DNA from: Promethearchaeota archaeon
Lineage (GTDB): Archaea > Asgardarchaeota > Lokiarchaeia > Sigyniarchaeales > SOKP01
Assembly (NCBI GenBank): GCA_019057865.1
Contig: JAHLWP010000035.1
Span: 1 to 42,765, forward strand
Reading direction: 5' to 3'
Length of the DNA stretch: 42,765 bases
Shown piece after piece: positions 728 to 35,500 of this stretch (within the stretch, counting starts at the first letter, position 1; each line of letters begins with the position of its first letter). Both the position numbers and the translations under genes were made by a program. The notes under the pieces are model-generated. The model saw only the letters and a program-made list of their open reading frames with translations. It searched no databases and was not told where the DNA came from.

Positions 728-859
728 AGCGGGGTGGGCTAGCCTGGTTTATGCCGCAGGGCTCATATGTGGTAAATATTTACCATGGAGAGACCCTGAG
801 ATCGTTCGTTCAAAAGTAAGATGCTGATTTCCAGCAGATTGAAAATCGAACCCCCGCTA
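728..859 (+). tRNA. Initiator tRNA-Met(CAT) with two introns (37/38: 768-792; 59/60: 815-845)
   Basis: Acceptor stem AGCGGGG/CCCCGCT with A1-U72, G11-C24, three G-C pairs in the anticodon stem, CAT at 764-766. Removing both inserts restores the CTCATAA and TTCAAAT loops. Confidence 0.93.
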
Positions 860-1815: not shown

Positions 1816-2229
1816 ATGGATTTATACGATTATAAGAAATTGCTAGATAAAGTATATGAAAAAATTCCAGAAAATGTAAAGCAGTCTGCTAGATTTGAGA
1901 TTCCCAAGGTAGAAATTCGTATAGAATCAAAAAATACTTTTATCACAAATCTTAATAAAATTCTTAACACTCTAAATAGAGATAAAAAGCATTTTATGGG
2001 AATTTTCCTTAAAAAAGCAGGGACAATGGGTGAGATTCGTGGGCAACAATTATTCTTGAAAGGTCAATATAAAGAACAAGTATTAAACCGGTTAATTGAA
2101 AATTATACAAAAACCTACGTATTATGTAGTATTTGTAATAAACCAGATACTCAAATTCAAAGAGAGGGTAAAAAATATTATCTTAAATGCACTGCCTGTG
2201 GAGCAAGACAAGAGATAAAAGAAAAATAA
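1816..2229 (+). CDS. eif2b: Translation initiation factor aIF-2 beta subunit
   Basis: Y..LLD..Y..IP, RFEIP, YVLCSICNKPDT...LKCTACGA zinc ribbon. ATG at 1816; alternative TTG at 1804. Confidence 0.95.
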   Translation: MDLYDYKKLLDKVYEKIPENVKQSARFEIPKVEIRIESKNTFITNLNKILNTLNRDKKHFMGIFLKKAGTMGEIRGQQLFLKGQYKEQVLNRLIENYTKTYVLCSICNKPDTQIQREGKKYYLKCTACGARQEIKEK

Positions 2230-6564: not shown

Positions 6565-7785
6565 TCAATGTAATGAAAAATCCTTTTCGATATCAGGATC
6601 AAAGATTTGCTTTAATTGATTATCTTTAATGAGGAAAATCTTTGGTAAAGGATATGGAAAGCGATTTGAAAAAGTTAAACAGTACGCACCTGTATTGGTG
6701 ACTAAAACTTTATCCCCTTCTTTTATATACTCACTAAAAAAGTAATCTTTTGCTAATACATCTTGATCAGTTGGAACTATTCCTAAGAATGTTGTTGGTT
6801 CATTATGCGAAAGATGGATTTTAGAGGCATTATAAAACCTTAGAGAACATCTAGCGAATTTCGGACATATGTGATTTCCTATATTTAAGAAAACATTTCG
6901 ATCATTAGATACTTTTAGAATTTTAGCTATAAATAAACCAGCATCACCAACAAAGTACCTACCAGGTTCAAAATAAATTTTCTCATAATTAATACTAAAA
7001 TCCTCAAAGATGGTTCTTATATTTTTAACAATTTTTCTTAATTGGTTTTGAGGCATTATAGTAGCTTCTGGAAAACCCCCTCCAATATTTATATTTTTAA
7101 CATTAATCCCAATTCGCGAAAAATTCTTTAAAGCCTCTATAATAGTTGTAATATTTTTTTTAAATTGCTCAAAATTATTCATTTGAGTACTATAATGAGA
7201 TAGTATTGTTGTTATTTTGATATTTTTACAACTTGTAATTAGCCTTTCTAAAAATATTAAGTTTTTTTTATCAAAATTAATACCTAATTTACTATTATAT
7301 TTCTGAGAATTAACTCTGATACAAATATTTTGGTTAGTATTAAATTTCTGAGCAACTAAATTAATTTTTTTTATGTCATTTAAATTATATACTATTAATT
7401 CCTTGATTTGGTTTTTTATACTAAGTCTTATCATTTCTTTTGGTAAATAGGGCCCTCCAGCTAATATTTTATTAGGGGGAAATCCGATTTTTAATGCTAA
7501 TCTAAGTTCAGGTAACCCGACAACATTTGCACCAATTCTTTCTGAACATATAATATTACAAATATCGGGAAGAAAATTAGCTTTAAATGAATAATAGCAT
7601 TCAAAATCATTAAATTCAGAACTAACAACATCTATAAATGATTTGACATTATCTCTTATTCTGTTTTCCAAAAAAATTAATAATGGAGTTTTAAATTTAT
7701 TTAGAATATCTTCAAGATATATCAAATCAATTAAAATTTTGCCTCCCTCTTTCTTTAAGAAAGGATTTCCAGAGATTTTTTTCAT
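6565..7785 (-). CDS. Fold-type III PLP enzyme, diaminopimelate/ornithine decarboxylase family (atypical)
   Basis: YSFKAN (PLP lysine), NIGGGF, FEPGRY, NTGAY; the catalytic CESGD motif is replaced by PTDQD. Confidence 0.8.
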   Translation of the reverse strand: MKKISGNPFLKKEGGKILIDLIYLEDILNKFKTPLLIFLENRIRDNVKSFIDVVSSEFNDFECYYSFKANFLPDICNIICSERIGANVVGLPELRLALKIGFPPNKILAGGPYLPKEMIRLSIKNQIKELIVYNLNDIKKINLVAQKFNTNQNICIRVNSQKYNSKLGINFDKKNLIFLERLITSCKNIKITTILSHYSTQMNNFEQFKKNITTIIEALKNFSRIGINVKNINIGGGFPEATIMPQNQLRKIVKNIRTIFEDFSINYEKIYFEPGRYFVGDAGLFIAKILKVSNDRNVFLNIGNHICPKFARCSLRFYNASKIHLSHNEPTTFLGIVPTDQDVLAKDYFFSEYIKEGDKVLVTNTGAYCLTFSNRFPYPLPKIFLIKDNQLKQIFDPDIEKDFSLH

Positions 7786-7795
7786 ATTATTATCA

Positions 7796-9094
7796 TTATT
7801 TTTTATTTATTAGATTTTGATATAATAAATGTGTTTTTTCTGCAATTATATCCCATGTATAATTTTGTGATACCTTTAATTGTCCTGCTAAGCCAAATTT
7901 TTTTTTTAATCTCCTATTTTTTAATAGAACAAGAACTTTTTTGGCAATATCAATTGGATTATCGAATTCCACTAAGAGTCCATCATAATTTTCTCTTATT
8001 ACTTCTGGTGTAGCACCAATTTTCGCTCCAATTACTGGTTTTCCGGCAGCCCAAGCTTCTAAAAATGAAATTCCAAAAGCATCACTTCGACTTGGCATTA
8101 AATATAAATCTGCTTCTCTAAATGCACTCAGCTTTTTTTTATCAAAATAACCAGTTAAATTATCAGGTGTAAAATTAAGGATTCTAGCATTTCTTAACTT
8201 ACGAACTTTTGATAATTCACGGTTAAATGCTAAGGTTGAAGGACCAATAAAAACAAAATAAATTCTAGGAACCTTTTGTAAGATGTAAGGGATTGCTTTT
8301 AAGATTGAAAGTGCCCCTTTTTCATAGTTTTTATATCCACAGAATAACACTAATTTATAATTTTTTTCCTTTCTTTTAAAAAAATTTTGTTTGAAATAAG
8401 ATTTTACGTGTTTGGAGTTTTTAATGTCTTTAAATTTTTCATAATCCACACCCATAGGAATTACCATAATTTTTTCTTTTTGCATACCATAGTTTTTTAT
8501 CAAAACTTTCTTTTCAAGATTTGTACAAGTTATAATGACATCAAATTTGCTTAAAACCTCAATTAAACTTGAATCTAAGTAACGTGGATTTGAAAAATGA
8601 AAAAATGGAGTACAAATTTTAGGTTTGTTAATGAGATTTCCTAAAATTAAAGCGATGATTAAGTTAAAATAAGGATAAAATGTAGCATGTATTAAATCAT
8701 AATTTATTGTTGGTTTTTTTAAGAAAAAATTGATTAAATCCTCCATATACGGCCCATTTTCTATAAATTTTATTAAACTTTCATTACTTAAATTTAAAAA
8801 ATCAAAATTAGGAATTTTTTTTAATTTATTTATTATATCATCAGGAGAAAGATTATAGTTTATCGAGAATCTATTAATCCTAATGTTATTTACTCCGTTA
8901 AAATACTTATTATTCCTCGTTATAAATCTCCCATTAGATTCTCTTAAAGCTTTGAAGTCAATCGCATTTGAAGTATAGATATCTACATTATAATCATATT
9001 TTTTTGTTAAAATTTCTGCCATTCTTTGAAAATAAAATTCAGCACCAGATATTGATGGATAATATCTTGTAGGAAGAAATAAAATATGATTCAA
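7796..9094 (-). CDS. Glycosyltransferase family 4
   Basis: YYPSISGAE, IPMGVD, KG, PSRSDAFGISFLEAWAAGKPVI. Confidence 0.92.
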   Translation of the reverse strand: MNHILFLPTRYYPSISGAEFYFQRMAEILTKKYDYNVDIYTSNAIDFKALRESNGRFITRNNKYFNGVNNIRINRFSINYNLSPDDIINKLKKIPNFDFLNLSNESLIKFIENGPYMEDLINFFLKKPTINYDLIHATFYPYFNLIIALILGNLINKPKICTPFFHFSNPRYLDSSLIEVLSKFDVIITCTNLEKKVLIKNYGMQKEKIMVIPMGVDYEKFKDIKNSKHVKSYFKQNFFKRKEKNYKLVLFCGYKNYEKGALSILKAIPYILQKVPRIYFVFIGPSTLAFNRELSKVRKLRNARILNFTPDNLTGYFDKKKLSAFREADLYLMPSRSDAFGISFLEAWAAGKPVIGAKIGATPEVIRENYDGLLVEFDNPIDIAKKVLVLLKNRRLKKKFGLAGQLKVSQNYTWDIIAEKTHLLYQNLINKK

Positions 9095-24471: not shown

Positions 24472-24804
24472 TTACCTTTTTTTTCTTTTTTCTTGAATAA
24501 GGATATTTTCTTCAGGAAATCCTAAATCAATTAAAAACTTTTTCATCTTAAAACGATGATCTCCTTGAAGTTCAACCTCGTTATTTCTTACAGTTCCGCC
24601 TGAAGCACACTTTTTCTTTGCTTTTGTTAAGATATCTTTAAGATTAACATCAAAATTCCCTACAAATGTTATTACTGTAACCACTCGCCCCCATTTCCTT
24701 GTGTCATTAGATATTATTATTTGTTGCTCATCAGCACTTAAGCCTTCACAAATACATAGTTCTTTTGGAAAACTACATATTGGACAAATGTCGTCGTCTT
24801 TAAT
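24472..24804 (-). CDS. sui1: Translation initiation factor aIF-1 (SUI1), probable ATT start codon
   Basis: The track ORF (24472-24684) extends 40 codons in frame: (ATT)KDDDICPICSFPKELCICEGLSADEQQIIISNDTRKWGRVVT...CASGGT....VELQGDHR. An in-frame TGA at 24816-24814 closes the frame, and there is no ATG/GTG/TTG before the Cys motif. Confidence 0.92.
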   Translation of the reverse strand: MKDDDICPICSFPKELCICEGLSADEQQIIISNDTRKWGRVVTVITFVGNFDVNLKDILTKAKKKCASGGTVRNNEVELQGDHRFKMKKFLIDLGFPEENILIQEKRKKR

Positions 24805-25082
24805 ACTCTCTTTTCACAACCTTTAATATTAAAATCTTTTTAAAATACAATACTTGAAAAATAATAGAACAATATCTTTTAAAAATCTTTCACTCTAGAG
24901 TGACACTTTTATAATGTAAAAAAGAGGGAACTTAAATTTGATAAATTAAACATTAAAAATTTATCTTTTAAATTTATAATATTAGATTTAATTTATCAAG
25001 TAAAAAAATATATAAAGATTAAATTTTATTTAATATAAAAAACTGTACTCTTTATTTTAGTTTAATAATGTGAATAATTAAT

Positions 25083-25616
25083 ATGCAAAGTTCATGGATA
25101 TTTAAAGTAATTGTGGCAGGGGCTGGTGGAGTTGGAAAAACTGCTATGATAACTCGTTATTGTACAGGGAGATTCGAAGAAGGGTATAAAATGACTATAG
25201 GTGCAGGTTTTTATACAAAATCTGAAATTCTTGATACAGGAGAAGCTGTTAAAATGCAACTCTGGGATTTTGCAGGAGAAAAACGTTTTCGCGAACTTCT
25301 ACCCGACTATTGTAAAGGGGCTAGTGGAGCATTCATATGTTTTGATATAAGCGATTATGATACATTTAGAGAAATACCTGAATGGCTTAAGATCATCCGC
25401 CAAAAAGCTGGATTTATACCAATAATTCTTATGGGTATGAAATGGGATCTACCCAACCATGAAGTTGTTTACGAAATTGCAAATGATTATGCTGAAAAAG
25501 CTAAATGTAATCAGTGCGTATTTTGTTCTTCGAAAGGAAATATCAATGTAACAGATTCTTTTCAGGCCATGGCAAAATGGTTAATCTATTATGCCACTCA
25601 AACAAATATGATATAA
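25083..25616 (+). CDS. Rab-like small GTPase
   Basis: FKVIVAGAGGVGKT, YKMTIG, LWDFAGEKRF, MKWD, CSSK; no C-terminal prenylation motif. Confidence 0.9.
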   Translation: MQSSWIFKVIVAGAGGVGKTAMITRYCTGRFEEGYKMTIGAGFYTKSEILDTGEAVKMQLWDFAGEKRFRELLPDYCKGASGAFICFDISDYDTFREIPEWLKIIRQKAGFIPIILMGMKWDLPNHEVVYEIANDYAEKAKCNQCVFCSSKGNINVTDSFQAMAKWLIYYATQTNMI

Positions 25617-33525: not shown

Positions 33526-33628
33526 TGGACCTGACGGGAATTGAACCCGTGACCTCTTGAATGCAAGTCTTGTAAATCAAGCAAAATGCTTGTTTTTGTC
33601 AAGCGATCTTCCACTGATCTACAGGCCC
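33526..33628 (-). tRNA. tRNA-Ala(TGC) with a non-canonical 32/33 intron (33567-33597, 31 nt)
   Basis: GGGCCTG/CAGGTCC acceptor with G3-U70, CTTGA-C[intron]TTGCAT-TCAAG, BHB central helix CTTG/CAAG. Confidence 0.93.

Positions 33629-33881: not shown

Positions 33882-35500
<1,619 letters not shown>

Follow-up and report, generated by a model that had tools for sequence, protein, structure and literature searches.

The gene for initiation factor aIF1 in this Lokiarchaeial genome starts at AUU behind a Shine-Dalgarno (SD) sequence, its near-cognate start is conserved throughout the family, and it is retained specifically in this gene, at a position where AUG never occurs among the family genomes sampled. 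We lean toward the interpretation that this start makes aIF1 synthesis subject to negative feedback. The gene lies on the minus strand of the window, by which we mean the whole stretch of 42,765 nucleotides that was analysed, and its features are the following:

24472..24804, minus strand: aIF1/SUI1 coding sequence from ATT to TAA, 110 codons plus stop
24814..24816, minus strand: in-frame TGA stop, upstream limit of the open frame
24802..24804, minus strand: proposed AUU start codon (ATT)
24787..24789, minus strand: second in-frame ATT, directly 5' of the first Cys codon
24748..24786, minus strand: N-terminal zinc knuckle CPICSFPKELCIC, codons 7-19, upstream of GTG 24684
24514..24729, minus strand: SUI1 domain (Pfam PF01253, E 4.4e-18), with the same coordinates in the whole-genome search
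24682..24684, minus strand: internal GTG, the start in simple ORF calling (Val44 in the 113-aa read, or Val41 when the ATT is codon 1)

Read on the minus strand, the aIF1 frame runs TTG TGA AAA GAG AGT ATT AAA GAC GAC GAC ATT TGT CCA ATA TGT. As the initial annotation had stated, neither ATG, GTG nor TTG occurs between the TGA at 24816-24814 and GTG 24684, which is the first canonical codon; this called GTG (24684-24682) is indeed located 40 codons downstream of ATT 24804, inside the SUI1 domain. The product that begins there in the simple ORF listing has 70 amino acids, and a start at this position would lose the CPIC...CIC zinc knuckle together with the first 15 residues of the SUI1 match. 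The PF01253 match covers residues 29-100 of the 113-aa query and profile positions 2-77 of 77, with 66 bits for a cut-off of 25.5. The NCBIfam archaeal/YciH profile (NF002096) scored 114.5 bits vs a cut-off of 98, and its position 2 aligns to residue 7 of the query, which places the normal N-terminus of aIF1 at or beside the ATT. The four cysteines of the knuckle (C-x2-C...C-x-C) were invariant in a 16-sequence Asgard alignment and present in 80 aIF1 loci from other archaea. A single SUI1 match was recovered in the genome, which is 99.7% complete, whether the search used the protein or the Pfam family.

We collected the locus first from 22 further species in the genus and then from 13 genera, giving 64 genomes of the family in total. 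The homologous start codon was ATT in 55 of the 64, ATA in six and ATC in three, and in none of them ATG, GTG or TTG, so that close relatives do not uniformly have ATG here, the outcome that had been named at the start as speaking against the proposal. One further family locus (L063) has GTG at the codon next to the homologous start. Relatives carry in-frame TGA, TAA or TAG stops one to three codons upstream of the start, mostly as a tandem TGA TAA within the genus. Both ATT codons, 24804 and 24789, had been put forward as candidates; the first stood, being fixed among relatives, and the second did not, as it varies between ATT, ATC and ATA. Changes in the KDDD codons between the two are mostly synonymous or conservative. 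Over codons 1-41, from the ATT to the GTG, 46 genomes showed variable columns in 20, 15 and 39 of 41 cases at codon positions 1, 2 and 3, with minor-allele fractions of 0.071, 0.029 and 0.247, respectively; this third-position-biased variation indicates that the stretch is translated and under purifying selection. Nucleotide conservation was unusually high throughout the leader and in the opening codons ATT AAA GAC GAC.

The conservation of the codon in 13 genera, the upstream in-frame stops and the coding character of the ATT-to-GTG stretch together strongly support the AUU start, and we regard AUU 24804 as the near-certain start of aIF1. The NCBI proteins of relatives begin with MKDDDIC, hence the NCBI pipeline already calls the ATT. 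Other gene callers gave truncated products of 70-90 aa in relatives, and the 70-aa product of this genome is present in the protein collection. The output of simple ORF callers would fit a broken gene, a true start at GTG 24684 or a missing ATG due to an assembly or sequencing error. We nevertheless consider all of these extremely improbable, because the same arrangement is found in 64 independent assemblies of the family, the upstream 40 codons are under purifying selection, a protein starting at the GTG would lack the zinc knuckle and the first SUI1 strand, and this is the sole SUI1 gene of a 99.7% complete genome.

Two further observations were made on the family loci. Second aIF1-like copies of about 60% identity were present in some relatives; these assemblies have 4-9% estimated contamination, and the copies may be contaminants. 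In some uncultured relatives (proteins P0004 and P0012, from short ENA contigs), TTG TGG replaces TTG TGA in the SD region; the frame is then open from the TTG and encodes MWKK(T/S)IKD..., so that these natural variants have a canonical start five codons upstream of the ATT.

Upstream of the start, the following elements were located:

24814..24821, minus strand: interrupted SD GGTTGTGA (GG..GTGA, vs perfect GGAGGTGA), 9 nt before the ATT
24853..24874, minus strand: conserved AT-rich upstream block TATTGTTCTATTATTTTTCAAG, from the leader alignment (genera g1, g14 and g17)

The 16S rRNA gene is encoded in the same window (33929-35420, minus strand), and its 3' end reads ...GGAUCACCUCCU. The GTGA at 24817-24814 had been described as complementary to the 16S tail at about 10 nt from the start; it does match the UCAC at the 3' end of this genome's 16S rRNA, with a spacer to the ATT of 9 nt. 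When GGTTGTGA is aligned with the tail, GG and GUGA pair around a 2-nt mismatch. The SD is invariant in genus g1, and GG-NN-GTGA is retained in most other genera of the family. The duplex of the aIF1 SD with the 16S tail has a predicted energy of -7.9 kcal/mol, for medians of -8.5 in other AUH/CUG-start genes and -3.6 in ATG genes. Spacers between GTGA and start peak at 6-7 nt genome-wide, and 9 nt was found in 38 of 385 cases. RNAalifold gave an open chain for 42 family leaders, that is, no conserved RNA structure was found in the leader, and the single-sequence fold of the aIF1 leader had z = -0.45. The block at 24853-24874 would be a candidate promoter; a TATA-like TTTTAAAAAG is located at 24844-24835 on the minus strand. 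This strongly conserved block belongs to a 278-bp intergenic region that separates aIF1 from a divergent upstream gene for a small Ras/Rab-like GTPase (GAGGVGKT...WDFAGEKRF; 25083-25616, plus strand).

The SD region also contains a short reading frame in another phase:

24800..24817, minus strand: out-of-frame mini-ORF GTG AAA AGA GAG TAT TAA, with its stop overlapping the ATT

The mini-ORF is present and overlaps the ATT as described initially; it did not hold as a conserved unit across the family. It could suggest that ribosomes start at the out-of-frame GTG 24817 and then either shift by +1 into the aIF1 frame or terminate and reinitiate at the overlapping UAU-UAA/AUU. Two observations speak for such a route: all 22 loci from the genus have the mini-ORF open, with its stop overlapping the ATT, and genus g5 has an out-of-frame ATGA or TTGA before its ATA. 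Against it, the GTG is itself within the SD, with just GGTT upstream; in genus g16, with its ATC start, the mini-ORF does not terminate there, and genus g22 has no upstream GTG, ATG or TTG at all. Moreover, genera g18 and g21 and a paralog-like group have the GTG in frame at 9 nt and nevertheless keep ATT or ATA. There is also no slippery site, the codon before the mini-ORF stop being TAT, CAT or AAT in same-genus loci. We thus judge this route very unlikely. Since the mini-ORF is not conserved as a unit in the family, comparison of these loci suggests that it is probably an incidental by-product of the SD.

Two other ways of entering the frame were rejected. A read-through product begun at the in-frame TTG (24819-24817) was ruled out by the tandem TGA TAA of most same-genus relatives, and slippage of the RNA polymerase on the A-run that follows the GTG by the fact that most relatives have GTGATAAG, which lacks the A-run.

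Direct initiation at the AUU raises the question of the tRNA that reads it. Two genes of the initiation machinery were located in the window itself:

728-859, plus strand: initiator tRNA gene, anticodon CAU, two introns (pattern search, read by eye)
1873-2208, plus strand: aIF2-beta (Pfam eIF-5_eIF-2B), within a 158-codon open frame with an ATG start

The initiator tRNA has an A1:U72 pair and a GGG/CCC anticodon stem, and its introns are positioned after position 37 and in the T-arm. Neither ARAGORN nor the Rfam tRNA model recovered this gene. An unusual initiator tRNA reading AUH was ruled out by its normal CAU anticodon; AUH codons would thus be read by mismatch, apparently aided by SD pairing. 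The other initiation factors of this genome, aIF1A (contig C63), aIF2-alpha (C60) and aIF2-beta, all have ATG starts. The tRNA genes of this genome mostly contain introns, and no more than 13-28 are picked up by standard finders. One such intron-containing gene (33526-33628, minus strand) lies just downstream of the 16S rRNA gene, with a UGC (Ala) anticodon as read by eye.

We then considered non-canonical starts in the whole genome (29% GC), retaining ORFs of at least 100 codons with a strong 6-mer SD, an aligned spacer of 5-8 nt and a frame closed just upstream. The start codons behind these strong SDs were ATG (61), TTG (13) and GTG (8), together with ATA (25), ATT (18), ATC (9) and CTG (2); control codons at the same position were AAT (8), TTA (6) and TAT (0). 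The three Ile codons taken together (52) were thus nearly as frequent as ATG (61). For 13 ORFs with a non-canonical start, a Pfam domain begins in residues 1-25, upstream of the first canonical start codon. These included ribosomal proteins S10 (ATA) and L21e (CTG), ThiF/E1-like (ATT), GFO/IDH/MocA (ATT), BKACE (ATT), AOR (ATA) and ubiquitin E2 (ATC) proteins. Examples of such loci (L162-L181) are found on contigs C25 (16682-16987), C27 (41966-42280), C69 (25357-26091) and C41 (113454-114707), and dozens of SD-led genes of this genome start at ATA, ATT, ATC or CTG. As AUH and CUG starts are common behind SDs genome-wide, an ATT codon alone is no sign of autoregulation. Their wide distribution also implies that the aIF1 of this lineage is not very hostile to AUH behind an SD; it suggests that discrimination against such codons is mild, and AUU may not be as "weak" a start here as in Escherichia coli. 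On contig C23 (minus strand; ORFs with their parts after the TGA at ~79804-80346 and ~7755-8297), HdrA-like N-termini contain an in-frame TGA (...VCQ-TGA-GINIAE... and ...VCR-TGA-GVNIGA...), which looks like selenocysteine and not like a start-codon problem.

What distinguishes aIF1 is the constancy with which AUG is avoided. We compared it with three other genes, each in 30 genomes of the family. S10 starts at ATA in 13, ATT in two, GTG in nine, TTG in three and ATG in three; L21e at ATA in eight, ATT in two, ATC in one, CTG in one, ATG in eight, TTG in six and GTG in four, with six different start codons in just nine species from the genus of this genome; and ThiF at ATT in 15, ATG in 12, GTG in one and other codons in two. 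Canonical starts therefore make up about half of these controls vs 0/64 for aIF1; this and the other start-codon comparisons are raw counts given without P-values, because related genomes are not independent and significance would be overstated. The ATT start itself is already implicit in the NCBI annotation, and what is new here is these controls of gene-specificity.

Similar avoidance was observed elsewhere in the phylum. Within the same order, the sister family has TTG, GTG or ATA at the corresponding aIF1 codon, and ATG in one genus only. The Asgard family f9 (16 genera; loci L122-L137) has CTG in 11 cases, GTG in four, one unclear and ATG in none, and its S10 and L21e genes start at ATG in 23/23 and 24/24 cases (47/47 together). 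Families f17 (Baldrarchaeia-like) and f11 and one f16 genome offer no canonical codon for aIF1, which apparently starts at ATA there; the start is apparently CTG also in family f6, and GTG in several Asgard families. Loci L093, L096-L099, L109, L112 and L157 are those from other parts of the phylum. In some Asgard lineages aIF1 starts at ATG, as it does outside Asgard in 61 of 80 sampled genes, and a TTG start is conserved in Methanomethylicia (L252-L271). The expectation of a conserved non-AUG start was thus borne out in the family and in several Asgard lineages and failed for most other archaea, which use ATG. Taken together, these comparisons make it well supported that selection keeps aIF1 off AUG in several independent lineages.

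Such selection could be explained by the activity of the protein. If the aIF1 of this lineage disfavors near-cognate starts, its own near-cognate start would make its synthesis self-limiting. In the mechanism that we propose, the 30S subunit would be positioned by the interrupted SD (GGUUGUGA) 9 nt upstream of the aIF1 AUU, which the ordinary initiator tRNA (CAU) would read through a third-position mismatch. The lineage would tolerate AUH and CUG starts behind SDs, with aIF1 as the gene that keeps a near-cognate codon and avoids AUG. The factor would destabilise initiation complexes on near-cognate codons, so that more aIF1 would mean less initiation at its own AUU, and less aIF1 would mean more. 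The outcome would be negative feedback on start-codon stringency, analogous to that of IF3/infC and eIF1. Discrimination by this aIF1 against its own AUU, and with it the feedback, is what we infer by analogy with characterized factors. On balance, we find it somewhat more probable than the contrary that aIF1 is translated from an AUU behind an SD, with the near-cognate start kept, as part of such a feedback loop.

A serious rival is the plain reading in which the AUU sets a low constitutive level of a sparingly needed factor, or is retained through a local constraint acting on the leader or on the initial codons, with no feedback at all. We give it a smaller but considerable probability. AUH starts are routine in this genome, which makes a special mechanism unnecessary, and the leader and the first codons are conserved, so that the ATT could ride along with a wider constraint. 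The strength of the aIF1 SD, which is normal for AUH/CUG-start genes, also counts against feedback. On the other hand, independent lineages have reached ATT, ATC, ATA, CTG, GTG and TTG for aIF1, and this variety suggests selection on weakness as such and not on one local sequence; the family with a non-AUG aIF1 in which S10 and L21e are always ATG argues in the same direction. Furthermore, any discrimination by aIF1 against near-cognate codons would make feedback automatic.

The feedback model could be extended to Asgard archaea as a whole, in which case the near-cognate start of aIF1, whether AUU, AUC, AUA, CUG, GUG or UUG according to the lineage, would act as a stringency homeostat. In this Lokiarchaeial family, the amount of aIF1 would then govern the output of a "near-cognate regulon" consisting of the dozens of SD-led genes with AUH or CUG starts, ribosomal proteins included. 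This extension is tentative and we consider it rather doubtful. Any feedback would in any case not be universal, given that aIF1 starts at ATG in some Asgard lineages and in most other archaea.

If the feedback model is correct, an archaeal counterpart would mean that all three domains have arrived at one and the same logic of control, and the feedback would sit on the eIF1 homolog in the lineage nearest to eukaryotes. It also provides a concrete system that can be tested, with the AUU leader titrated with aIF1. Independently of regulation, callers limited to ATG, GTG and TTG clip aIF1 to 70-90 residues and would clip dozens of genes with non-canonical starts, S10 and L21e among them, by 17-117 codons; Asgard proteomes obtained from such callers are therefore systematically clipped at the N-terminus. 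Our literature search returned no paper that deals with the codon at which aIF1 genes start in archaea, or with AUH/CUG starts in Asgard archaea, and a term search of the text of PMC6237735 and PMC4705826 indicated that neither discusses how the gene for aIF1 starts.

Three known systems can be compared with the proposed one. The bacterial infC gene, encoding IF3, has an AUU start and undergoes translational autorepression (Butler et al., 1987, as cited in PMC4705826). In both cases a factor that rejects non-canonical starts is encoded by a gene with an SD-led AUU start, and relatives have kept the near-cognate codon. The two differ in that IF3 and aIF1 have unrelated folds, and in that feedback has been demonstrated for infC, whereas for the Lokiarchaeial aIF1 it is a proposal. 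Furthermore, AUU starts are extremely rare in E. coli and AUH starts occur in dozens of genes here, making the contrast between aIF1 and other genes smaller. Eukaryotic eIF1 (SUI1) is autoregulated through an AUG in poor Kozak context, according to Ivanov et al. (2010; PMC2964218). It is homologous to aIF1, has the same role in start-site stringency and likewise has a suboptimal start site of its own; however, eIF1 keeps an AUG in a weak context reached by scanning, whereas aIF1 has a near-cognate codon positioned by SD pairing. Finally, the aIF1 of Sulfolobus is reported to block 30S complex formation on AUU mRNA in vitro (reviewed in PMC4705826), and the aIF1 of Sulfolobus solfataricus and Pyrococcus abyssi to destabilise, likewise in vitro, the complexes formed on mRNAs with AUU or another non-AUG codon (PMC6237735, PMC4705826). 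These proteins belong to the same family as the Lokiarchaeial factor, and their in vitro activity is the one that the feedback model needs.
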